DNA of 64,000 bases from the sequence record OL615013; one strand, written 5' to 3'. The position numbers and the translations under genes were made by a program. Positions 15,402-27,126 of the stretch are shown one piece after another (position 1 is the first letter of the stretch; each line of letters opens with the position of its first letter). This DNA is from Shigella phage ChubbyThor. The notes beneath the pieces are model-generated. The model saw nothing but the letters and a program-made list of their open reading frames with translations, searched no databases and was not told the origin of the DNA.

Positions 15402-15728
15402 TTATTTGCGCAGGGCAACCACGAGTTCAGCGAGTTCGCCCATGGTAGGGTCATCGCCTTTACTACCCAGCCAGCCGTCGTCGATTTCGACCTGAAACTC
15501 TTCTTCGAGGTCCATTACAATTTCGATAGCGTCCAGTTCGTCGCCGCCGAGATCCTTCTTGGTGCGGAGACCAGCCAGCTTGTCCAGGGCATCGTTGATT
15601 ACCACTTCGGCATCGACGATCCCTTTGATGCTACTCTTGTCCTCATCACTGACTTCCAGATTCAGATTGTCAGTGGCGTACTGAGCCAGATGACGCATGA
15701 CTTCAACATATGTTGGTTTACTGCTCAT
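15402..15728 (-). CDS. acyl-carrier-protein-like protein with Ser-to-Glu at the phosphopantetheine site
   Basis: KKDLGGDELDAIEIVMDLEEEFQVEI matches the ACP core LGADSLDTVELVMALEEEFG, with E where the modified Ser normally sits. Confidence 0.55.
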   Translation of the reverse strand: MSSKPTYVEVMRHLAQYATDNLNLEVSDEDKSSIKGIVDAEVVINDALDKLAGLRTKKDLGGDELDAIEIVMDLEEEFQVEIDDGWLGSKGDDPTMGELAELVVALRK

Positions 15729-15747
15729 GCTACTTCTCCCAAAGAAA

Positions 15748-15763
15748 GGCGGGTTGCCCCGCC
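15748..15763 (-). terminator. intrinsic terminator after the vWA gene
   Basis: GGCGGG / CCCGCC stem, loop TTGC; minus-strand RNA continues UUUCUUUGGGAGAAG then ATG of the ACP-like gene. Confidence 0.55.
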
Positions 15764-15770
15764 CGTTGGA

Positions 15771-17972
15771 TTAGATTTTGATCTCTTTCTCTGCCAGTTC
15801 GGCAGTGACCTTGTACTTCACGCCATCCACTTCAACTTCCATGGTTGACTCTTCCAGGTCGAGGTCGGTGAACCAGCCGTGGCCAGCAACGATACCATAC
15901 ACCACTTTAGACAGCGTCTTGTTCAAGGCGCGGACTTCAGTGATGGCCGCCTTGGCAGCAGCGTCGATCCAGTTTTCGATCAGCTGTTTCTGTACGGCTT
16001 CAGGCACGGCAGTGATCGCAGGAGACTTCACGAATGCTTCGTATTCCTTCAGAGCATTGGCGATGAACAAGTCACCCGCATTGAGTTTCTTGTTCTCGGC
16101 AATCTTCTTCTGTACTGCCGCGATGCTAGGCAGAGAAGACGCTCCAGCGATCTTAACGTTCAGCTCACGGCTCATGTAGACATCCGTGGAGTCCTTCAGT
16201 TCGGTCTTCGGTGAGAAGCCGTAATCGCGGATGCCGTAGGAGGACAGGAACTCTGCCGCCTCAGCGCCGTACTGTACTGCCAGGCCTTTGGCGTTACCTT
16301 TGCCAACCAGTTCATCACGGAAGAACTTCAGCACCTTCTGCTTGCCTTTCAGGGCTTCCAGACGGACATTATCCGCAAAGAACTGAGCAGCACTGATGTT
16401 CTTGACCATGGCGCGGTTGACCAGCGGTACGCTTTCCAGGTTCAGGACAAACACTTCCGGACCACCGAACACATGGACGCCCATCTGGCACAGATTGGTT
16501 ACAACTTCAACATCAGCCCTGAACGGCAGAGTCTTCACGTTGATGATGCCGTCTTTGACGATGGTGTAGTTGCGCCACTGGAAAGTATCCAGTTCTTCAG
16601 GCAGACCGAACTTCTTCTGCACGAACTCCGGAATCGCCACAGTGCCGTGCTGGACAGTGCGTACACTGATATTAGGGCGTTCGGAGTTATAGACCAAATC
16701 GCTGATTGGCACAACACCCAGATCGTTGTTAGGTTCGAACGTCGGGTTCCACTCTTCGTGCTCGGCCAGCTTGAGAGCCAGGGCTTTGCGCTCTTCTTTG
16801 GACTCGGCGTTCGCGATCTGTTCTGCCAGCTTGTCTTCGGTATCGTCCAGTTTCTGAGCCGTACCGCGACCGATGCTCTTGTAGGAGAACATAGGATGTT
16901 TGGTAGCAACACACACGCCAGCTTCAGCCAGATACGTCAGCACGTCAACGACGGTCGTCGCATCTTCAGCTGGAACCAGGTCATAATCAATACCGTCAAC
17001 GCCGCGCAGCTGGTCATCAACGATGGCCTGGGTCAGATCAACTTTGATGTTGGAGTAGTCCTGCTTGGTGAAGCAGTTGCTGTACTGTTTGATGAAGCGA
17101 ACGTCACCCGTTTTCTTCAGGGCAGCCCACACCAGGTCTGCGTCCATGATGTGTACGCCGTAGAACGCCAGCACGTATGCCGCCTGGATGTCCGCCAGCG
17201 CATCAAGCTGGTCGATCATGTTAGGATTGACGACCCACAGCTTCGTGACGCTCTCAGGGATGCTCACGTGGCCGATAGGATGGTCTTCATCCGGCTGTAC
17301 CGCCAGCACAGTTGCTACGCCGTTTTCAACGTAGATGGCATGATCATACAGCAACGGAACATCAACAACCACTTTCGGCACCGAGGACTTCAGTACGTTT
17401 TCCAGCTCGGTCTGATATTCGGTCTGGCCTTCGGCGAACACGTGAGTCGCGCCGGAACGTTCAGACATCAGAGCCAGCAGTTCGCGGTTACAGTACCAGC
17501 CGTATTCGATGAATGTGACGTTGTCGAAAGCGGAAGGAAGTTTTTCGGCGGTCTCCAGGATCTCATTGGAGCGCCAGCAGTTGTCATAACCATCGGTCAT
17601 GAACGCCAGGTTGTTGACGTAGCCGGGTTTCTTCAGGTCACGCGCAGTATCCATCGCCAGTTTCAATGGTTCAACAAAACCAGTACAGCCGGATGGTTGT
17701 AGGAAGCGGTCGATCAGTTTGTTCAGCTCGCTCAGGTCAGATGCTGCACTAACCTGACGGCCAGCGAACACAGTACCAAAGTCGCCACGGGATGAGAAAT
17801 ACAGAACACTCACAGTATCTTCCGGTTTCACCAGAGAAGGCAGGTTCTCCTTCAGATGCTTACGGACTTCAGGGAGCGCACGGTACATCGAATAAGAGAT
17901 GTCCACAACGATTACATGGTTGGACGGGGCAGCAGTCGCAACCGCATTCTTAAATTCTAATGATTCAATCAT
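15771..17972 (-). CDS. von Willebrand factor A (vWA) domain protein with about 500-aa uncharacterised C-terminal region
   Basis: Track start is TTG; moved to ATG at 17970-17972 (MIESLEF...); MIDAS-like HVIVVDISYSM in N-terminal domain. Confidence 0.6.
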   Translation of the reverse strand: MIESLEFKNAVATAAPSNHVIVVDISYSMYRALPEVRKHLKENLPSLVKPEDTVSVLYFSSRGDFGTVFAGRQVSAASDLSELNKLIDRFLQPSGCTGFVEPLKLAMDTARDLKKPGYVNNLAFMTDGYDNCWRSNEILETAEKLPSAFDNVTFIEYGWYCNRELLALMSERSGATHVFAEGQTEYQTELENVLKSSVPKVVVDVPLLYDHAIYVENGVATVLAVQPDEDHPIGHVSIPESVTKLWVVNPNMIDQLDALADIQAAYVLAFYGVHIMDADLVWAALKKTGDVRFIKQYSNCFTKQDYSNIKVDLTQAIVDDQLRGVDGIDYDLVPAEDATTVVDVLTYLAEAGVCVATKHPMFSYKSIGRGTAQKLDDTEDKLAEQIANAESKEERKALALKLAEHEEWNPTFEPNNDLGVVPISDLVYNSERPNISVRTVQHGTVAIPEFVQKKFGLPEELDTFQWRNYTIVKDGIINVKTLPFRADVEVVTNLCQMGVHVFGGPEVFVLNLESVPLVNRAMVKNISAAQFFADNVRLEALKGKQKVLKFFRDELVGKGNAKGLAVQYGAEAAEFLSSYGIRDYGFSPKTELKDSTDVYMSRELNVKIAGASSLPSIAAVQKKIAENKKLNAGDLFIANALKEYEAFVKSPAITAVPEAVQKQLIENWIDAAAKAAITEVRALNKTLSKVVYGIVAGHGWFTDLDLEESTMEVEVDGVKYKVTAELAEKEIKI

Positions 17973-18135
17973 CGTTATTGCCTTCTTCAGGGTTGTCTTC
18001 GGCCTCACCTTCCGGCTTGACCAGCATATGTTCAAGGAAATCGCGATTGAGTTCAATCTGACTCATCAGCGTTTCCGATGGGCTAAAGCGGCGGTCGAGG
18101 TTGTCGACGCCCGCACGTTCAAATGGTTTGGCCAT
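17965..18135 (-). CDS. small acidic protein (56 aa)
   Basis: ATG at 18133-18135 next to stop of upstream ORF; 8-nt overlap with vWA start. Confidence 0.35.
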   Translation of the reverse strand: MAKPFERAGVDNLDRRFSPSETLMSQIELNRDFLEHMLVKPEGEAEDNPEEGNNDD

Positions 18136-18136
18136 A

Positions 18137-18496
18137 TCAGCCGCCCTTGACTTCAGTAACGCCAGGGATCGACCGCAGGGCTTGGCGAACATCGGCGACC
18201 TTGTCCTTCTCCACAGTCACCACAATGAACGAGAAGTTCCTTTGTTTACGCCATTTCTTGAAGTGTGAGACAAGCTGTACTTCGTTTTCTTCTGCGCCGC
18301 TTCCCCCTTCTACAGGGACGTAAACGACACCAGATTCAATAACTACATCGGCGTCATCGGGGATATCTGCGTCTACATCTTCGCGATATTCACCATTGAC
18401 TTTGATGCAATGATCGTCGTGCCAAGCGCCGTTCACCCAATATTCATCATCGTGGTAGTACGCATTGAACTCGACACCTTTCATCTTCACAGACAT
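18137..18496 (-). CDS. hypothetical protein (119 aa)
   Basis: ORF track; ATG at 18494-18496. Confidence 0.45.
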   Translation of the reverse strand: MSVKMKGVEFNAYYHDDEYWVNGAWHDDHCIKVNGEYREDVDADIPDDADVVIESGVVYVPVEGGSGAEENEVQLVSHFKKWRKQRNFSFIVVTVEKDKVADVRQALRSIPGVTEVKGG

Positions 18497-18538
18497 CAGG
18501 ATTCCCTCGAAACAGGGGAGTTGCCTCCCCTTCGGTTA

Positions 18539-20203
18539 TCAGATTTGTGATGCCAGTTCTACTACGAGAGGAGCGGCACGGACACGCGCATCTTCCAGAG
18601 TTTGAGTGTTGAAGAACTTGCCGTCACGATACACCAGCTGGTGCTGGTTGTCGGCGTCTTGCACCTGATCAAAGGTGATACCGTCAACCAACACTAGTTT
18701 ACCCTGAGAGTCTTTAATGACTTTAAGGAAACCACGCGCAGACTTTTTAGTCCCGCCTTTGTCGGTCTTCGGCTCTTTGAAGATCTCACGGAATTCGCCG
18801 TTCACCTTACCAGCCGTTGCTTTCACCGCCGTGCCAGTACTGTCACGGGTGTTCATCTGGTAGGTGTAGGAACCGATACCGAACACCACGTTGATGGAAG
18901 CGAAGTTCCGGCCAGCCAGACGACTAAAGATCTGGTCTTCACGTGCCAGGGTGATGGAGTCACCGTAGATCAGACCGATGTGTTCGTCCAACAGGAAGTG
19001 GCCAGTTTCAGTTTGAGTACCGCCAAAGATCTCCCACAGGCGCTGGATAGAGCCGACTGCTTCAGAACGGCTGATGATATTACGGTCGTCTGCCATCAGA
19101 GAGTTGATCGTGCCTTCGCCTGTGATCAGGTGATAGGTGTTCGTCTCTTCGATGTGAATGACTTCAGTGCTGCTAGACACGCCGCTGATGTTCAGCGTGG
19201 CGCGGTCTTTGAACCCCTCAATGCGGTAGCCGCCGACGATATGAACTGGGTCGCCCGAGTCAGGGCGGATCACGACTTTACCGTTACGCGCCATGATAAT
19301 GTCTTTCAGGCGAGGGAGATAGTCGTCGATGACCTGCCAGTAATCCCACGCATCAGACACGATGCTGACGATGCCATCAGGATACACGTCCTGCACCAGG
19401 CGGCGGAAGGTTTCGAATTCGCCATCCTTCGTACCCATACACATCACGGCGTGTTCGGTAGCCGCAACAGAACCAGCAACGACATAGTCTTCGTCGATGT
19501 CTGCGCCATAATACTCTTCTACGAAGTCCAGGGCAGGGTTGGTATCGGTGCCTTTGAAGAACACCAGATGACCGGAACCGGAAGACGCCGCGTCATGCCA
19601 TCCACTCATGCCACGGAAGGAGAAGTCGTGGCCTTGGTAGTCGATGAACCAATGGTCCGGCGACACGCCTGTAGCGAGGGCAGCTTTCACCATCAGTGCC
19701 TTGTAATGCAGGGCGATGGTGGCGTTCGTCATCGGCTTCCAGATCTCAGAGCTGAACACAGTCTCCAGATAGTTGGTCAGCCAGTAGAACTCCGGCAGGG
19801 TGTTGAACATCACATACACCGGAACGCCATATGGGCACATGGTGCCTTCAGGCAGAGCACGGACTTCGATAGGCAGGTAGCCGAGGTCATGCAGGGCTTC
19901 AATATGCTCTGTGCCGACGCGGCCTGGACCCAGGACTTTGTTCATGCGACGGGCATACTTCTTCAACACCTTGGCCTTTGGGCGCTGGAAGAATGCTTCG
20001 TCAAACAGTTCGTGGAACCAGGTCATGAAGCCCTGGATGCCCCAGACCACCACGCCGTTCTTCGGCAGGTGAGAGTTGAACAGTTTGTTGGAGCGCGGAG
20101 TTCCGTTGGAGAACACCAGCTCGCTGCCTTCAGGGAACTGATAGATGTGCCCTGATTTGTAGAAGTCGATTGCATGGATTGGGTCTAAGTGGCGCATGCT
20201 CAT
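18539..20203 (-). CDS. nicotinamide phosphoribosyltransferase family protein (NadV/Namat-like)
   Basis: NAMPT-like motifs DFSFRGMSG, VSDAWD, RPDSGDP, GLIYGDSIT; 4-nt overlap with upstream PRPP-synthetase-like gene. Confidence 0.8.
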   Translation of the reverse strand: MSMRHLDPIHAIDFYKSGHIYQFPEGSELVFSNGTPRSNKLFNSHLPKNGVVVWGIQGFMTWFHELFDEAFFQRPKAKVLKKYARRMNKVLGPGRVGTEHIEALHDLGYLPIEVRALPEGTMCPYGVPVYVMFNTLPEFYWLTNYLETVFSSEIWKPMTNATIALHYKALMVKAALATGVSPDHWFIDYQGHDFSFRGMSGWHDAASSGSGHLVFFKGTDTNPALDFVEEYYGADIDEDYVVAGSVAATEHAVMCMGTKDGEFETFRRLVQDVYPDGIVSIVSDAWDYWQVIDDYLPRLKDIIMARNGKVVIRPDSGDPVHIVGGYRIEGFKDRATLNISGVSSSTEVIHIEETNTYHLITGEGTINSLMADDRNIISRSEAVGSIQRLWEIFGGTQTETGHFLLDEHIGLIYGDSITLAREDQIFSRLAGRNFASINVVFGIGSYTYQMNTRDSTGTAVKATAGKVNGEFREIFKEPKTDKGGTKKSARGFLKVIKDSQGKLVLVDGITFDQVQDADNQHQLVYRDGKFFNTQTLEDARVRAAPLVVELASQI

Positions 20204-21054
20204 TTTACACGTCCTGTATTTTCAGTTTTGAAAGGAAGACCGTCGGCGGTGATATTCTCCCACCAGACAGTGTCGGCATACACAGCATCGTAAATCCCGT
20301 CGAAAACAGAGAGACCTTTGCTGAAGATGCCATGGGTAACGAAGAGCGTCATGTGTTTGGGCTTGTGCTTCTGAAGCTCTTTGCCTAACTCAACGAACGT
20401 GCGCCCACCGTCGCAGATATCATCAACCACAACCAGATAGCGGTCTTTGATCAGTTCAGGGTTTGTAATGCTCACCCCAATGATCTCACCAGTCTTGGTG
20501 TCACGGTTCTTGTGTCCGTAGACAACAGGAACACCATCCAGAGACAGGCTGAGGGCTTCGGTCTTCTTCGCCGCGCCACCGTCAGGGGCTACCAACACAG
20601 CATTGTTCCCACGGATGAACCAGCCCAGATACTGACGCACGATGTAATCTTGCGGGACAACATGGACGTTGTTGATCAGAGAAGTCACAACATGGCTGTG
20701 AGGGTCTTTGATCGCCACGCGGTCAAAGTTCATGCTATTGATGAACTCAGCCGCCCACTTCACAGACAGAGGCTCGCCGAAGTCGCAATGGCGGTCCTGG
20801 CGAGCATACGGGAAGTAAGGGATATACGCATGGAATGTCGTCAGACGATCCACGTTGCCCAGGCCACGCACGGCGTTTACCAGAAGCGCCAGCTCAATGA
20901 AGTCGGCTGATGATTTGATGTGAGCATCAATCACCACGTTCTGGACGTGACCGACAGGGATGCCAGCCTTTTGGATCTTGATATGTTCCTCACCACCTGG
21001 GAAGGTGAAGTGCTTGTAGAACACATCTTGGTCGTTCAATTTCAAACGAAACAT
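20200..21054 (-). CDS. ribose-phosphate pyrophosphokinase family protein (Prs/Adps-like)
   Basis: PRPP-binding motif VVVDDICDGGRTF and VLVAPDGGAAKK; size typical for Prs family. Confidence 0.8.
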   Translation of the reverse strand: MFRLKLNDQDVFYKHFTFPGGEEHIKIQKAGIPVGHVQNVVIDAHIKSSADFIELALLVNAVRGLGNVDRLTTFHAYIPYFPYARQDRHCDFGEPLSVKWAAEFINSMNFDRVAIKDPHSHVVTSLINNVHVVPQDYIVRQYLGWFIRGNNAVLVAPDGGAAKKTEALSLSLDGVPVVYGHKNRDTKTGEIIGVSITNPELIKDRYLVVVDDICDGGRTFVELGKELQKHKPKHMTLFVTHGIFSKGLSVFDGIYDAVYADTVWWENITADGLPFKTENTGRVK

Positions 21055-21164: not shown

Positions 21165-21959
21165 TTATTTGTAGGAATCGACGATGGCCTTGAACAGCGC
21201 GTCCTTCTGGTCGGTTGGGATATAATCCGCCGGAGCCAGCAAGAGCCGCCTGATGTCTTCACAGCAGCCTTTCTGCTCTTCGGCGCTCATCTTATCCCAA
21301 GTGGTGGCATTAAAGTAGATCCCACCCTTGTAAGCCGCCGTGCAAGTCTTGGCCAGGCGAACAACGAGTTCTGAATACAGTTCATCAGGCCGCATGTGTG
21401 AACGCAAATATGTTTCCACTCTGGCCTGGACTTTGCTGTTGTGTTGGTCATTGTGAAGTTCGTTGTCGGTATGAATAAATTCAGCACCGAATCCGCGACT
21501 TGGGTCTCGTGGATGATGGAACACGAAAGACTGGCTATGACCTTTCAAGAATTCCATCCCAGCCATATGATTTATCTTCCCCCTTTCGGAGATGTACTGC
21601 AAGATATCTATCTTCGCATCGGCGGTGGCCGCCTCCAACATCTGCTTCTCCACGACGGCGCGGTAGGCTTCCAGTTCCCACAACTGGGAGAAAGTCTTGT
21701 CATAGGCCAGCTTCTTACCCAACTCTTCATCAAAGTTGGCAGGGTCGATGGAAGTAGAGCTATTCTTGCCCCAGACGACAAAGCCGTTGTCCATCTTGAA
21801 ATGGCAGGTGATGACACGATGACCGCCGACTTCACGGTCTTCATAGATGACTTCAGCAATGTGGGACTTCAGGAGGTCTGGAGACAGCTTCAGACCTTCG
21901 CGAACAGATTTACCCTTCAGCTCAACACCTTTGGGTTCATTACGATTGATGGTTGCCAT
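21165..21959 (-). CDS. hypothetical protein (264 aa)
   Basis: Track start is TTG; moved to ATG at 21957-21959 (MATINRNEPKG...). Confidence 0.45.
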   Translation of the reverse strand: MATINRNEPKGVELKGKSVREGLKLSPDLLKSHIAEVIYEDREVGGHRVITCHFKMDNGFVVWGKNSSTSIDPANFDEELGKKLAYDKTFSQLWELEAYRAVVEKQMLEAATADAKIDILQYISERGKINHMAGMEFLKGHSQSFVFHHPRDPSRGFGAEFIHTDNELHNDQHNSKVQARVETYLRSHMRPDELYSELVVRLAKTCTAAYKGGIYFNATTWDKMSAEEQKGCCEDIRRLLLAPADYIPTDQKDALFKAIVDSYK

Positions 21960-22341
21960 TCTGTGTTTCCCGTAATTGGTTGCATACAACAACTACTTTA
22001 CGGCACATGTCGATATCGAACAAGCCGATATGGCAATCACGCTTCTTGATCCCCAGCTTATGCGCCAGCCAACTGTAAGCGTCGCTCCTGCTCCTCTCTC
22101 CGCTTTTCCACAATGGGTCAAACGATCTATGGGCTTTTCGCTTCTCGGCACGGAGAGCGGCATTCGCCATCCTTCCCAGAGGTTGTCTGCCGTCGCCATG
22201 GGCATGGCAACCGACACGAGCGTCACATGGAGTGCATACCCAGAACTTCAGATTGCGGAGGTCAGGGCGATGAGGGTGGAGGACGTCACCACCGACGAAT
22301 TCGGCTGGGTGGCCGCAGTAATCACAGATGACAGGTTTCAT
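21940..22341 (-). CDS. zinc-ribbon phage protein
   Basis: CDYCGHPAEF...FWVCTPCDARVGCH four-Cys/His pattern; start moved to ATG at 22339-22341 just after terminator hairpin. Confidence 0.5.
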   Translation of the reverse strand: MKPVICDYCGHPAEFVGGDVLHPHRPDLRNLKFWVCTPCDARVGCHAHGDGRQPLGRMANAALRAEKRKAHRSFDPLWKSGERSRSDAYSWLAHKLGIKKRDCHIGLFDIDMCRKVVVVCNQLRETQNGNHQS

Positions 22342-22358
22342 ATTCTTTGTCCAAAAGA

Positions 22359-22379
22359 AACCCCGCACATGGCGGGGTT
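22359..22379 (-). terminator. intrinsic terminator
   Basis: AACCCCGC / GCGGGGTT 8-bp stem, loop ACATG; minus-strand RNA continues UCUUUUGG. Confidence 0.65.
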
Positions 22380-22817: not shown

Positions 22818-24836
22818 TTAGAACACAACTTTCACAGTGCGGTTGAACGAGCCGCTCACCTTCACGAACACGTGGTTGCGTTGGGTGGTAGAGAAGCCCA
22901 GACCGGACAGCTGCTCAGTGCTTGGCTGTACTTTAATCTTACCACCTAACATTTCAAAAACCTTGCGGTGTTTATCAAGTTCCGGCTTCAGATATTCGTT
23001 GTAGAAGCCACGGGTGCCGACAGGGTTAGCACAACCTTCCAGGATGAAGAACACGTGCTTGTTGCCCGTCTGCTCGCCGTCCCAATGGTTTGGTGAGTTC
23101 AGAACCAGCTGTACCTTCTGGAAGACGGAGGTCTTGATGCCCCAGATTTCCTGAGAGCGAGCGTCGTCTTTCAGGGTAGAACTGATGTCGACCACCTGAC
23201 CAGCGCGTACCTGAACCACAACAGCCAACGTGCGGTCTTTGTTTCCCAGACCAGGATGCGAGAAGCGCTTGGTCTGGCCTTTGTATTCAACTTCGATTTC
23301 GAAGCCCACATCGCAGGTTTCGCGCTTGCTGTAGTTGGTGACATAGAACTCATAGTTCCCGTCACGCAGCTTGCATTCATCGCTGAAGAAGATGTTCTCC
23401 ACCGGACGGCGGTTCGGGTCAATACCGTCCATACCGTTCATGTCGATGTCCAGGGTTGCACCAGTTGCCGAACGACGGTTGTTGAAATACACGTGGTTGT
23501 GAAGAGGATCGTTCAGGCTCAGATCCAGGTCGTCGTTGTTATGCCAAGCCAGCGACACACGGAGGAAGCTGTCGACGTTGCCGCCTGCGGTCTTCACGCG
23601 CTCTTTGATGGAGTCGGCCACTTCACCGTTGTATGACCAGCTGAAGCCGTTGTTCCACTTGAACAGGTTAGGAGCACCTGCCGTAGCCGGAGCGATCAGG
23701 GACATCAGGTTGCCAGTGTGAGAGTTTTCAACCAGCACTTCCAGGGAATGCGCCTTTGGCAACACGTTGGTCAGGAAGTCGTCGATGGTGATCTCTTCAA
23801 CCTTGTCCAGGGACTTGGTCGGAGTCTTCACTTCAGACGCCAGCTGAGCAAACGGGTCCATCTTCTTCTGCGCTGCCAGGTCGGCGAACAGAACGTTGTT
23901 GATGGTCAGATCGTCATACACGGCATAACGGCGACCCAGTGAATCGGTCAGACCCAGCGCTTCGACTTCTTTCTGCGCGTTTTCAATCATGGACTTCGTG
24001 ACCAGCGCGGTTGGGCGCTTGTAGTTCGTCGGAGCGACTTTGGCTTCAAAGGACTTCACGGCGGTTTCCAGATCCCGACCTTCATTGAGGTCTACCAACA
24101 GAGAGCCAATCACGGTATTGCGGATGCCGTGAGGGGTGTGTCCGTTTGCACGGTAGCCAGTACGCCAAGCCCACAGAGCGCGTTTCTCTTCTGCAGTTTG
24201 TTCGTACAGGGTCTTGCTCGTCACGAACGCCTGTACTGCTGCTTTGTGCTCTTCACCACGATACAGAGAATTCTGATCAATCAGTTCCAGAACGATTTCG
24301 GCCGATTCCAGAGACAGTTCACGCAGGCCGCGCTCAAACACTTCAATCGCCTGGCGGATTTCACCCTTCTTAGAAGCGATGACATCAGCCCGCAGAACAT
24401 AGCTGGGCAGCAGGTCGGTGTGGAAGTGGTTGTAGGTGCGGACATTACCGTCTTTCATTTCGTGATTCGACTCAACACCGACTTTCTTGGTATCGTTGAA
24501 GTACACGTCGACGATTGCGTGTTGCTTGACATACGCAGACAGCGCCGCGGCGACAACGTCGTATTCGTTACCCAGCTGAATGTTATCCCAGATAGAGATC
24601 ACGTTCAGGTCGGCGTCGATGGTCACCACACCGCCGATGTTACGGATGAATTGTTTACAGCAGGTGCAGTCGTGCTCGGTGCGCTCACGGTAGAGCGGGT
24701 TGGTGCCAGCAGGGAAAGAAGACAGATACAGATCCCACAGAGCATCTTTATCGATGTTGGTCATGAACAGACCAGTTGCTGACATGGCCAGCACATTATT
24801 GTTTACAGCTACTGCGAAGGGCTTAAATTCTGACAT
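22818..24836 (-). CDS. large hypothetical protein (672 aa)
   Basis: Long ORF with ATG start; no polymerase or other motif recognised. Confidence 0.6.
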   Translation of the reverse strand: MSEFKPFAVAVNNNVLAMSATGLFMTNIDKDALWDLYLSSFPAGTNPLYRERTEHDCTCCKQFIRNIGGVVTIDADLNVISIWDNIQLGNEYDVVAAALSAYVKQHAIVDVYFNDTKKVGVESNHEMKDGNVRTYNHFHTDLLPSYVLRADVIASKKGEIRQAIEVFERGLRELSLESAEIVLELIDQNSLYRGEEHKAAVQAFVTSKTLYEQTAEEKRALWAWRTGYRANGHTPHGIRNTVIGSLLVDLNEGRDLETAVKSFEAKVAPTNYKRPTALVTKSMIENAQKEVEALGLTDSLGRRYAVYDDLTINNVLFADLAAQKKMDPFAQLASEVKTPTKSLDKVEEITIDDFLTNVLPKAHSLEVLVENSHTGNLMSLIAPATAGAPNLFKWNNGFSWSYNGEVADSIKERVKTAGGNVDSFLRVSLAWHNNDDLDLSLNDPLHNHVYFNNRRSATGATLDIDMNGMDGIDPNRRPVENIFFSDECKLRDGNYEFYVTNYSKRETCDVGFEIEVEYKGQTKRFSHPGLGNKDRTLAVVVQVRAGQVVDISSTLKDDARSQEIWGIKTSVFQKVQLVLNSPNHWDGEQTGNKHVFFILEGCANPVGTRGFYNEYLKPELDKHRKVFEMLGGKIKVQPSTEQLSGLGFSTTQRNHVFVKVSGSFNRTVKVVF

Positions 24837-24951
24837 GATGTAGTCTTCCTGTTTCAGTTCAAATGTGCGCCCCGTTTGCCAGGGCGCTTCGTTTAAGTGA
24901 GGTCAATAATACGTTGAAAAAAGTTATTGAAGAATGAAGTAAAGGGAATCT

Positions 24952-26175
24952 TTATTCAGGTTTCTTCAAACGGTCCAGCAAATTGACGGAACCACGTTTG
25001 AGCACGACTTCATCACAGCGCTTTTTGTATTCCCCACCGCCGTCATAGCTGACCTTGCCCCGAGGTTTTTCACCGCGCCCAACCGCCTCAACACAGCGAG
25101 TGTACTTGCTCAGTTCACAGAACATGTTCTCCAGCTGCATGACGTTCATGCATTGGTCTACAGGCTCTTCGGCCGACCAGAATTGCTCGCGAACATACCC
25201 ATATTGGGAGTATACCGCGTCCTGATTATCCCGTAGCCAGAATATGCATTCTTCGTGAGTCATGCCGTCCTTGTTCAGGAACAGCAGATCAATACCTGCG
25301 CGACAGCCCGGTCCGGCGATCGTGAAGTGATTCTCGCTGAACGGATAACCAGGCATGTACGTGAAATCAACCCAGATCTGATAGGCCAGGAATGGACCAA
25401 GCCCTTCAATGTCGTCGTACATGCGCTGGTATACTTCCAGAGGAGTATCAAGACGCAGCAGGTCATGGAAGTAATTTGGGTGCTTGTTGACGAATGCCTT
25501 CAGGGAACGGATAACACGCATCGGCATGTATGGTTCCCATCCCTCGATGGTATATTCACCAGGATTCTCTTCGACCAGCTTCTTGGCGACCTTGTAGTCC
25601 ATCTCGTCCACAATACCCTGGCCAACGCGATACACTTTCACCATCATCCCACCGAAGCGCTGCTCCTTGTGGTTGACAACCAGCTCAGGGAAAGCCAGGC
25701 ATTGCTTCAGGCCGCCTGTGTTGAAGGCATTGGTGAACACCTTGCCGCCGTCGGCCTCGAACTTCTGAAGTCGTTCGCGGGTTGCGTCAAGGTTGATCTT
25801 GGCGAAGTCTTTGATCGTCATCGCGCCGCCGATAGCCTGGATCGGATCCCAGAGGTTGAACATGCGGAACAGAACGCAGTTGAACATCTTGTCTGCCATG
25901 CCCAGAGCATCGTTCTTGACGATGTTATTGATCAGGTTGAGAGACTGCCTGTCGTGCTCTCTCCGGACGTTACAGAACTTGACCTGCCGTAGTATAGGAT
26001 TATTGGTCCAAGGGGCAGGAAGACGCTGGACGTCCTTCTTGACGTGGATCTTATAGCGCTCGCTCATCCATTCGTAAGACAGGCGGGTATGGGTCGGACT
26101 GAGAACCGGTTTGGCCGACTTTATCTTTTCTTCACGGACACCGCAGTACGGGACGTCCAGGGCTTTATCTTTCAT
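24952..26175 (-). CDS. hypothetical protein (407 aa)
   Basis: Long ORF with ATG start; no motif recognised. Confidence 0.6.
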   Translation of the reverse strand: MKDKALDVPYCGVREEKIKSAKPVLSPTHTRLSYEWMSERYKIHVKKDVQRLPAPWTNNPILRQVKFCNVRREHDRQSLNLINNIVKNDALGMADKMFNCVLFRMFNLWDPIQAIGGAMTIKDFAKINLDATRERLQKFEADGGKVFTNAFNTGGLKQCLAFPELVVNHKEQRFGGMMVKVYRVGQGIVDEMDYKVAKKLVEENPGEYTIEGWEPYMPMRVIRSLKAFVNKHPNYFHDLLRLDTPLEVYQRMYDDIEGLGPFLAYQIWVDFTYMPGYPFSENHFTIAGPGCRAGIDLLFLNKDGMTHEECIFWLRDNQDAVYSQYGYVREQFWSAEEPVDQCMNVMQLENMFCELSKYTRCVEAVGRGEKPRGKVSYDGGGEYKKRCDEVVLKRGSVNLLDRLKKPE

Positions 26176-26199
26176 GGTATCCTCTTAGAATACGAAAAA

Positions 26200-26220
26200 C
26201 AGAGGCCATTATAGCCTCTG
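26200..26220 (-). terminator. intrinsic terminator
   Basis: CAGAGGC / GCCTCTG stem, loop CATTATA; minus-strand RNA continues UUUUUCG. Confidence 0.55.
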
Positions 26221-26244
26221 TTGTTTAGTGAATAACTGTATATC

Positions 26245-27126
26245 TTAATCGATACGGGTCAGCTGGGTGATAGATGATTGCACTGGGCTGGCCACATAGA
26301 TACGGACGTTGGCTTTCCATTCACCCCAGATCAACGGCAGAGTTGGGAAGTTGTCTTCATTGAAAACAAACACGGGAATATAACTCTCGACTGTTTCACC
26401 AGAGAACGCCTGGAAGCCCATCTTGGCGTACCCCATAATCTCGTCAACAAAGTCGAACGGAGCGAAGGCAACACCAGCGTGTTCGTTGCATCCGAGTCGA
26501 CCTGGGGTAGCCGTGCCCGTCAGAATGATTTCGGTTATCTGGCGCTTAGGCTCGGTGGTCAACATATCAGAGAAGTCCGGCTCTTTGAATGCTGCCATGT
26601 TCTTCAGGAACTTGCCAGCCGGGTACTCTTTGCCGTCGACGGTGATGGTGTCTACCACTTTGATGCACGCCTGGGGGAATTCCCCTTCGATGCGTAGACT
26701 TTCGCGTGGGAAGCCTTTGTTGTAGTAGTAATCCAGTGCAGGCACAACTTCACCTTCATTACGAATGAACTTGCTCATGTTGGAAGCATAAACGCGCTGT
26801 AGGCACTCATCGCCGTCGAAACCAGCAATGTGAGCCACGCCGTCATTGACGGTGGTGATATCACCCTGGGCGTCCATGATCTTTTTCATGGCATTGATAC
26901 GAGCTTCCGGATCAGCATAAACCGGGTTATCGCTCGGCTTGGGGGTGACAGACAGAGTCAATGCCACGTCATGGTCAAAGAATGCCGCTTCCATCAGTTC
27001 GCGGGTTTCTTCCAGCACCAGTTTCGCCTGATTGCGGATCTTACCAAAGTCGGGCGATGTGACGTCGCCCTTTGCATTACCGAAAGCCAGATTCAGATTC
27101 ACGTTCTTAGAAAATGTAGTTGTCAT
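26245..27126 (-). CDS. hypothetical protein (293 aa)
   Basis: ORF track; N-terminal LVLEETRELMEAAF is faintly MazG-like; unconfirmed. Confidence 0.55.
   Translation of the reverse strand: MTTTFSKNVNLNLAFGNAKGDVTSPDFGKIRNQAKLVLEETRELMEAAFFDHDVALTLSVTPKPSDNPVYADPEARINAMKKIMDAQGDITTVNDGVAHIAGFDGDECLQRVYASNMSKFIRNEGEVVPALDYYYNKGFPRESLRIEGEFPQACIKVVDTITVDGKEYPAGKFLKNMAAFKEPDFSDMLTTEPKRQITEIILTGTATPGRLGCNEHAGVAFAPFDFVDEIMGYAKMGFQAFSGETVESYIPVFVFNEDNFPTLPLIWGEWKANVRIYVASPVQSSITQLTRID

Follow-up and report, generated by a model that had tools for sequence, protein, structure and literature searches.

We present an analysis of a gene for a 733-residue protein with a von Willebrand factor A (vWA) domain, found in a 64,000-nucleotide stretch of Shigella phage ChubbyThor (sequence record OL615013) that is referred to below as the window. 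The window belongs to the Ackermannviridae, genus Agtrevirus, with DNA identity of 97.5% to Shigella phage Ag3 and of 95% to Salmonella phage SKML-39. The source phage is ViI-like and T4-related, with T4-type replication and morphogenesis genes, and it is not T4-like in the narrow sense; the original prediction, which was made from the sequence of this stretch alone and which spoke of a T4-like region, is amended accordingly to an Ackermannviridae setting outside T4 proper. On the minus strand, open reading frames (ORFs) of 119, 56 and 733 amino acids follow one another exactly where that prediction had placed them, and a gene for a 108-residue protein similar to acyl carrier proteins (ACPs) lies directly downstream (Table 1). 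The 119-aa ORF abuts the 56-aa ORF by the proposed TGA-T-ATG junction (...GGC TGA T ATG GCC...), and the 56-aa ORF overlaps the vWA gene by 8 nucleotides (ATGATTGA), its end reading ...AAC GAT GAT TGA while ATG ATT GAA is read in the other frame. A mechanical reading of the vWA gene gives an ORF of 761 aa that begins at a TTG 28 codons upstream of the ATG; the annotated orthologues all start at the ATG. A terminator-like GC hairpin with a T-run, detected by a hairpin scan, separates the vWA gene from the ACP-like gene. A GC hairpin read from the sequence (ggggaggcaactcccc, followed by tgttt) precedes the 119-aa ORF; it falls below the T-run rule of the terminator scan and would be a weak terminator or attenuator at the beginning of the unit formed by the small ORFs and the vWA gene. 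In Klebsiella phage May, terminators are annotated at the equivalents of both hairpins. Because the junctions are tight and hairpins flank them, we regard the 119-aa, 56-aa and 733-aa ORFs as a compact unit.

The N-terminal vWA domain with a motif of the DxSxS type, which was part of the original prediction, is borne out by structure prediction, a fold search and an alignment of 59 homologues. The segment VVDISYSM occupies residues 22–29 of the protein, and the complete metal ion-dependent adhesion site, abbreviated MIDAS, is present, namely DxSxS followed by a threonine and then an aspartate. In the alignment at least 90% of the homologues retain each of D24, S26 and S28, and both T97 and D127 are invariant. 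The Pfam vWA match at residues 20–174 scores 25.9 bits and is therefore slightly below the gathering cut-off of 27; homologues of the protein clear their Pfam vWA cut-offs. The AlphaFold2 model of the whole protein has a predicted local distance difference test (pLDDT) score of 88.5, and its N-terminal fold is indeed that of a vWA domain, Rossmann-like with alternating alpha and beta elements, joined to a beta-sandwich or barrel in the arrangement of the Sec23/24 and ArnB type. On this model the first ~320 residues begin with a vWA domain whose MIDAS is competent and continue with a beta-sandwich and then a helical bundle; together these resemble the core found in ArnB, inter-alpha-trypsin inhibitor heavy chains (ITIH) and Sec23/24. 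The protein has six scattered cysteines that form no zinc-finger cluster, and neither a signal peptide nor a transmembrane segment is visible in its sequence.

The long C-terminal region that had been described as unassigned proved to be so when domain searches were run: the ~480 residues that follow the vWA domain have no match in Pfam, in PDB sequences, in NCBIfam or in PADLOC. The PDB search was made with a profile of the region, the Pfam scan of 24 family members gave nothing consistent over it, and NCBIfam and PADLOC returned zero matches. A separate model of residues 246–733, built with 24 sequences, has a pLDDT score of 88.6 and a predicted template modelling (pTM) score of 0.78. When this model was compared by Foldseek with predicted viral structures, only members of the same family were retrieved, a few of them split or devoid of the vWA domain. 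No solved phage virion structure in the PDB resembles the module in the fold search, and no Sec23/24 chain is present among the top 60 fold matches of the C-terminal model. As modelled, the last ~410 residues are shown to be a confidently folded, family-specific module without known relatives. The most strongly conserved motifs of the whole protein are RNYTIVKDGI, GIRDYGFSPK, RPNIS, NCFTKQDYS and the C-terminal ...EKEIKI; NCFTKQDYS belongs to the helical bundle and the others to the C-terminal module, where G..WF is conserved as well. The homologue alignment also contains invariant polar residues toward the C-terminal part (Q304, Y364, R432, N434, N468 and D474). Judging from this alignment, the module is under strong constraint, which could reflect either an interface or an active site that has gone unrecognised. 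The gene is split, shortened or reduced to the C-terminal module in a few phages, namely in Escherichia phage KWBSE43-6 (L028), Bacillus phage SP-15 (BFVD A0A127AX08, 361 aa) and Serratia phage IME250 (P0024, 676 aa), and therefore the two halves can be separately encoded.

The 733-aa protein is 99.5% identical in amino acid sequence to orf00144 (gp127) of Ag3 and 48.7% identical to KP15_100 of the Slopekvirus KP15, and further orthologues include LIMEstone1 ORF108, CBA120 orf143 and RB43 ORF119c. It matches PHROG 2426 over its full length (E = 0, 1231.9 bits; residues 1–733 on profile positions 2–736 of 736), a family of the Ackermannviridae and some Straboviridae with the database label "unknown function"; no function is assigned in PHROGs or in GenBank. 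A tblastn search with the protein retrieved 503 phage records, which span the four main genera of the Ackermannviridae, Slopekvirus and other T4-related enterobacterial phages, as well as Shewanella phage Thanatos, Kleczkowskaviridae of Rhizobium and Takahashivirus of Bacillus; no phage of the T4, T2 or RB69 type is among the matches listed. Two of the records, MN871475 (Pseudomonas phage Pa-sanjiao) and OR844942 (Enterococcus phage Efm 3-10), are Kuttervirus-like at the vWA locus, with ~83% and ~75% amino acid identity, and are probably mislabelled or contaminated entries. In a comparative study, the vWA protein was counted among those conserved across the Vi01-like subclusters, and the annotation of the LIMEstone1 orthologue as "vWA containing" dates back to at least 2012. 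The surprise that had been expressed at finding a vWA protein here is thus misplaced: because the gene belongs to the core of the Ackermannviridae, is found in hundreds of records and has been annotated for years, its presence is to be expected.

Beyond these phages, a profile of the C-terminal module matched 1436 cluster representatives at E <= 1e-3 and 904 at E <= 1e-30, where family clusters are defined at 50% identity. Nearly all of the best 150 of the 1436 representatives are 700–815 aa long and have the module starting at residue ~250–310; the architecture of vWA domain plus C-terminal module is fixed across the family. The genomic contexts that were inspected in detail are all phage, among them a jumbo-phage contig of 452 kb and T4-like contigs that had been assigned to metagenome-assembled genomes (MAGs), and IMG/VR contains 171 loci, many of them on contigs of 200–510 kb. 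A search of 185,579 prokaryotic species genomes, one for each species, gave only 11 matches, all of them on lone contigs of 178–225 kb or on short contigs from MAGs; these have the appearance of phage DNA included in the assemblies. The family is phage-restricted. Full-text literature searches found no functional study of it, and a term search of a 2024 review of the Ackermannviridae found mention of neither the vWA gene nor the ACP-like gene. The gene is already known, as is its annotation as vWA; what is new is the structurally unmatched module of ~410 residues in a protein without an ATPase partner.

The coupling of the vWA gene to two small ORFs, as originally proposed, holds for the tight junctions at this locus and, as a conserved association, for the 56-aa ORF only. 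This ORF was found in 209 phage records, all with Ackermannviridae-type sequence, and it directly precedes the vWA gene in each of Agtrevirus, Kuttervirus (S118), Limestonevirus (phiD3) and Taipeivirus (May), with an identical 8-nucleotide overlap junction (AACGATGATTGAATC) and a conserved ...G(N/Q)NDD C-terminus in these four genera. Kuttervirus S118 and Taipeivirus May both lack the 119-aa ORF. Homologues of this ORF in Karamvirus-like and other T4-related Klebsiella and Enterobacter phages lie at ~43 kb, the vWA gene of related phages being at ~67–70 kb. The 119-aa ORF is a dispensable accessory gene whose close packing against the unit is incidental.

On the other side, the ACP-like gene is always the next one after the vWA gene in the four Ackermannviridae genera. 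Its product matches the Pfam PP-binding family with 25.0 bits against a cut-off of 20.8, and its DLGGDELD segment aligns to DLGADSLD of solved ACPs, so that a glutamate takes the place of the phosphopantetheine serine; across the four genera the prosthetic-group site is occupied by glutamate or aspartate. Consequently, the protein is not a conventional acyl carrier, and it may instead be a mimic of apo-ACP. The gene was found in 271 records, with Ackermannviridae-type sequence in all but one weak partial match, and this number corresponds to ~269 vWA matches at the Ackermannviridae level. The conserved Ackermannviridae unit is a fixed trio of the 56-aa peptide, the vWA protein and the serine-less ACP-like protein.

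Some known vWA proteins are paired with ATPases of the MoxR type, and the original prediction had recognised no such partner nearby. This holds for the window and generalises to the family. No MoxR-type ATPase was found in Pfam scans of the neighbouring genes and larger unassigned ORFs of the window or in the Ag3 annotation that covers about its first 50 kb. At 100 loci from 33 lineages (defined at 55% vWA identity), we collected the ORFs lying up to 8 kb to each side of the gene and clustered them by BLASTP; no neighbour family is common to more than 5 of the 33 lineages, and no AAA+ ATPase is among the recurrent neighbours. The few neighbours that do recur have the look of replication genes: Pfam identifies one as a family-A DNA polymerase, one is annotated as a gyrase/topoisomerase II subunit and, in our own reading of the sequences, others are probable primase-like and topoisomerase-like proteins and a small possible nuclease. 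The ORFs upstream of the gene in KP15, in a Rhizobium phage and in a jumbo-phage contig have neither similarity to the 119-aa and 56-aa ORFs nor a PHROG in common with them.

The remaining features of the window are collected in Table 1. Upstream of the unit are two genes for NAD+ salvage, encoding nicotinamide phosphoribosyltransferase (NAMPT) and ribose-phosphate pyrophosphokinase, also known as phosphoribosyl pyrophosphate (PRPP) synthetase. No PRPP synthetase is annotated at the matching position of Ag3 despite 97.5% identity nearby, and Klebsiella phage May has one; S118 lacks NAMPT, and phiD3 has a truncated form of it. The NAD+ salvage block therefore varies among close relatives. An ORF similar to the C-terminal part alone of the Alt-like RNA-polymerase ADP-ribosyltransferases looks like a stand-alone ADP-ribosyltransferase domain close to the salvage genes. 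Farther upstream, a group of genes that includes a 5-hydroxymethyldeoxyuridine (5-hmdU) DNA kinase is a likely thymidine-hypermodification cluster; we weighed a link between it and the vWA gene and did not adopt it, since the vWA family is common in phage groups well beyond the ViI-like lineage. Three probable homing endonucleases appear to explain part of the difference in spacing between the window and Ag3, and one of them, the Vsr/DUF559-type nuclease, adjoins an ORF taken as the major capsid gene.

Table 1. Features of the vWA locus and of the surrounding window
Feature	Positions	Strand	Remarks
733-aa vWA-domain ORF	15771-17972	-	ATG start (MIESLEF); 81.1 kDa, pI 5.0
vWA domain (Rossmann-like alpha/beta)	17385-17924	-	residues 17-196
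MIDAS motif D24-I-S26-Y-S28	17889-17903	-	checked by translation
MIDAS residue T97	17682-17684	-	codon checked by translation
MIDAS residue D127	17592-17594	-	codon checked by translation
Beta-sandwich after vWA domain	17226-17384	-	residues 197-249
Helical bundle with conserved NCFTKQDYS motif	17013-17225	-	residues 250-320
Family-specific C-terminal module	15774-17012	-	residues 321-733; mixed beta domain, long helical hairpins, terminal beta-hairpin
56-aa acidic ORF	17965-18135	-	pI 4.3; PHROG 8656
119-aa acidic ORF	18137-18496	-	PHROG 4254; accessory
108-aa ACP-like gene	15402-15728	-	directly downstream of vWA gene; PHROG 4154
Terminator-like GC hairpin and T-run	15747-15764	-	between vWA gene and ACP-like gene; hairpin scan
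GC hairpin, then tgttt	18515-18530	-	between NAMPT and 119-aa ORF; read from sequence
NAMPT (554 aa) and ribose-phosphate pyrophosphokinase (284 aa)	18539-21054	-	NAD+ salvage pair; stop/start overlap
Alt-like ADP-ribosyltransferase ORF, 175 aa	14473-15000	-	PHROG positions 1265-1425 of 1480 only, E 1.8e-15
ParB N-terminal-like ORF, 153 aa	13166-13627	-	PHROG 2859; weak ParB-like match
HNH/NUMOD3 probable homing endonuclease, 276 aa	12339-13169	-	
DUF3268 zinc-finger protein	21940-22368	-	
Likely thymidine-hypermodification cluster	22818-27126	-	
672-aa protein	22818-24836	-	PHROG 1735; no Pfam match
5-hmdU DNA kinase	24952-26175	-	PF18723, E 4e-82
MazG-like pyrophosphatase	26245-27126	-	
Vsr/DUF559-type nuclease, probable homing endonuclease, 490 aa	38340-39812	-	low-GC stretch (GC 0.416, 38-40 kb)
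GIY-YIG probable homing endonuclease, 235 aa	45745-46452	-	

The explanation that we tentatively favour, as one that is quite possible, is that the vWA protein is a MIDAS-dependent, stand-alone protein-binding adaptor made during infection, by analogy with other proteins of this kind. The product would be a soluble, acidic phage protein of 81 kDa made inside the infected cell, and it would act as an adaptor or scaffold that has no need of an AAA+ ATPase. The Mg2+ ion of the MIDAS would be completed by an aspartate, a glutamate or a phosphorylated residue of the partner, with the C-terminal module serving as a second interface or perhaps carrying an activity that has gone unrecognised. In the Ackermannviridae, the vWA protein would be co-expressed with the coupled 56-aa acidic peptide and the serine-less ACP-like protein; we infer that the three may form a complex in which the latter two are candidate bound subunits. 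Phages that infect Enterobacterales, Shewanella, Rhizobium and Bacillus all keep the same architecture and the same invariant residues, and for this reason a phage-core or universal bacterial protein is a likelier partner than a host-specific one. The MIDAS fold, the sequence free of visible signal peptide or transmembrane segment, the fixed architecture, the phage-only spread, the lack of a conserved neighbour or a late promoter, the replication-like character of the few recurrent neighbours, the expression seen in three phages, and the Ackermannviridae trio support the adaptor with modest confidence. Several points weigh against it. The proposed mechanism draws on the general behaviour of vWA and MIDAS domains. 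The invariant polar residues from Q304 to D474 could mark the active site of an enzyme and not an interface, and the overlap with the vWA start codon may by itself dictate the conserved ...NDD end of the 56-aa ORF. Finally, the six peptides of the LIMEstone1 orthologue in virions, a level comparable to that of some baseplate proteins, may leave room for a location in the virion.

The last point leads to the explanation that the vWA protein is associated with the virion in low copy number, as a minor structural component or as a protein ejected with the DNA, and that its vWA domain would contact a virion component or, on entry, a target in the host envelope or cytoplasm. We consider this unlikely, if worth keeping in view. 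The vWA protein is clearly expressed, having been detected by mass spectrometry in LIMEstone1, Sajous1 and Thanatos. In purified LIMEstone1 virions ORF108 (81.06 kDa, "vWa containing protein") was represented by six unique peptides with 11% coverage, above the single peptides of each of the proteins that the authors held to be unexpected and that may be suspected as carry-over. In contrast, in CsCl-purified particles of the Kuttervirus Sajous1 the orthologue gp185 and the ACP-like gp186 gave one spectrum each against 924 for the capsid protein, which places gp185 at the level of dUTPase and a clamp-loader subunit. TH1_124 of Thanatos was detected in "purified virions" and in lysate precipitated with polyethylene glycol, but a ligase and polynucleotide kinase were detected there too, and according to the authors the virion sample contained contaminating host proteins; in Ag3, only six bands of the virion gels were sampled. 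The gene is near those for gp23 and the prohead protease at two of the surveyed loci (L006 and L007), near baseplate genes in KP15 and near genes for a PAAR protein and a lysozyme in a Rhizobium phage, and two GenBank records carry the label "minor tail protein"; set against this, the neighbours that recur across lineages look like replication genes, and the C-terminal module is unlike any solved virion structure. The T4-type late promoter TATAAATA and the published Ag3 late-promoter consensus both lack a match near or upstream of the vWA unit, which also counts against a virion protein. On balance, stoichiometric membership of the virion is less likely than an intracellular role, and the vWA protein does not emerge as a common structural protein from virion proteomics that are weak and mixed, with six peptides in one phage and one spectrum in another. 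Capsid-targeting sequences of T4 are marked by an (L/I)xE motif, and this motif is absent from the first 30 residues of the 733-aa protein.

Trace or variable detection in virions is also what would be expected of a co-chaperone or assembly factor for the morphogenesis of large T4-type capsids or tails, which would work with a host ATPase or with none and leave a residue in virion preparations. There is precedent for such a role, as vWA proteins have been described as Mg2+-dependent peptide-binding co-chaperones and MoxR-vWA pairs have been implicated in the virion assembly of ATV, an archaeal virus, with a like role proposed in jumbo phages; the restriction of the family to large T4-related and jumbo myoviruses of unrelated hosts also fits a phage-core client. 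We nevertheless find an assembly factor rather improbable, given that no MoxR ATPase is linked to the gene in any of the 33 lineages, that the N-terminal position of the vWA domain and the large module of its own are unlike known co-chaperones, and that the closest relatives of T4 appear to be without the protein among the tblastn matches listed, so that it is not needed for T4-type assembly in general. A role in host takeover or counter-defence is more improbable still: here the serine-less ACP-like protein would act as a decoy, aimed at host enzymes that bind ACP or at a process that depends on it, the vWA protein would be a clamp, and the locus would be an accessory island of anti-defence type next to the NAD+ salvage genes. 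The ACP helix-II motif retained in four genera with an acidic residue at the prosthetic-group site, the strict co-occurrence of the ACP-like and vWA genes in the Ackermannviridae, and the placement of the salvage genes directly upstream and of the Alt-like fragment downstream would all be consistent with it. However, the vWA family reaches far beyond the phages that have ACP-like or NAD genes, the adjacent NAMPT gene is missing or truncated in S118 and phiD3, there is neither a PADLOC match nor similarity to known anti-defence proteins, and conservation over hosts as different as Bacillus and Rhizobium disfavours a host-specific target. Ku70/80 proteins have a vWA domain at the start and a length similar to that of the 733-aa protein, which made a DNA-end binder of this type the initial lead, and CobS/CobT pairs are common in tailed viruses. 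A phage counterpart of either multi-domain vWA protein is effectively refuted. Ku70/80 gave no match in either fold search, and the Ku beta-barrel ring and C-terminal arm are not found in the phage protein; a chelatase subunit of the CobT/ChlD type is discounted by the N-terminal vWA domain, by the lack of a CobT or Mg-chelatase match in Pfam and by the lack of a linked ATPase.

The adaptor could be part of something larger. In a bolder version, which we regard as a long shot, the C-terminal module would be a new fold and the vWA protein the hub of a previously unrecognised, ATPase-independent phage complex that uses the MIDAS to capture a protein of the phage core or one universal among bacteria, joined in the Ackermannviridae by the 56-aa peptide and an ACP mimic devoid of the prosthetic group. 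If true, this would be a new principle of host takeover or assembly in thousands of large T4-related and jumbo phages. The family comprises at least 1436 clusters in such phages, and two thirds of the protein are structurally and functionally blank. A metal-dependent site that is kept intact across phages of Gram-negative and Gram-positive hosts implies that the protein must contact something important; finding the partner would fill a sizeable hole in phage biology and define a vWA architecture that dispenses with the customary AAA+ ATPase. A second lead, cheap to test, is the serine-less ACP-like gene. The Ackermannviridae are, moreover, much used in biocontrol and therapy directed at Salmonella, E. 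coli O157, Shigella, Klebsiella and Dickeya. Current understanding is not overturned by these results, as databases already list both the gene and its annotation as vWA.

Among known vWA systems, the MoxR-vWA pairs (RavA-ViaA, NorQ-NorD, CbbQ-CbbO, p618-p892 of ATV and those of jumbo phages) have the vWA domain at the C-terminus, whereas that of the phage protein is N-terminal; the remainder of these proteins is unrelated to it, and no MoxR ATPase accompanies the phage gene. Sec23/Sec24 of the COPII inner coat (PDB 1m2v, 2nup, 3eh2) have a trunk and barrel akin to the vWA core of the phage protein, which differs from them in lacking a zinc finger, in having no helical or gelsolin domain in common with them and in having an intact MIDAS. 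The ITIH heavy chains (ITIH1, 6fpy, and ITIH4) and the vWA protein 4fx5 of Catenulispora are 12–18% identical to the phage protein; the former are secreted eukaryotic proteins, the latter is an uncharacterised actinobacterial one, and none has the phage C-terminal module. ArnB of Sulfolobus acidocaldarius (PDB 8s05, 5a8j), with 16% identity, combines a vWA domain with a beta-sandwich as the phage protein does, but at ~380 aa it is without the 410-aa C-terminal module, and its partner is the FHA/zinc-ribbon protein ArnA, whereas no ArnA-like partner or kinase is linked to the phage gene. Since the defining features of the MoxR-vWA, CobT/ChlD, Ku and Sec23/24 families were looked for and are not found in the phage protein, it is not a member of any of these, and its N-terminal part appears from the predicted structure to be most like vWA proteins of the ArnB and ITIH types.

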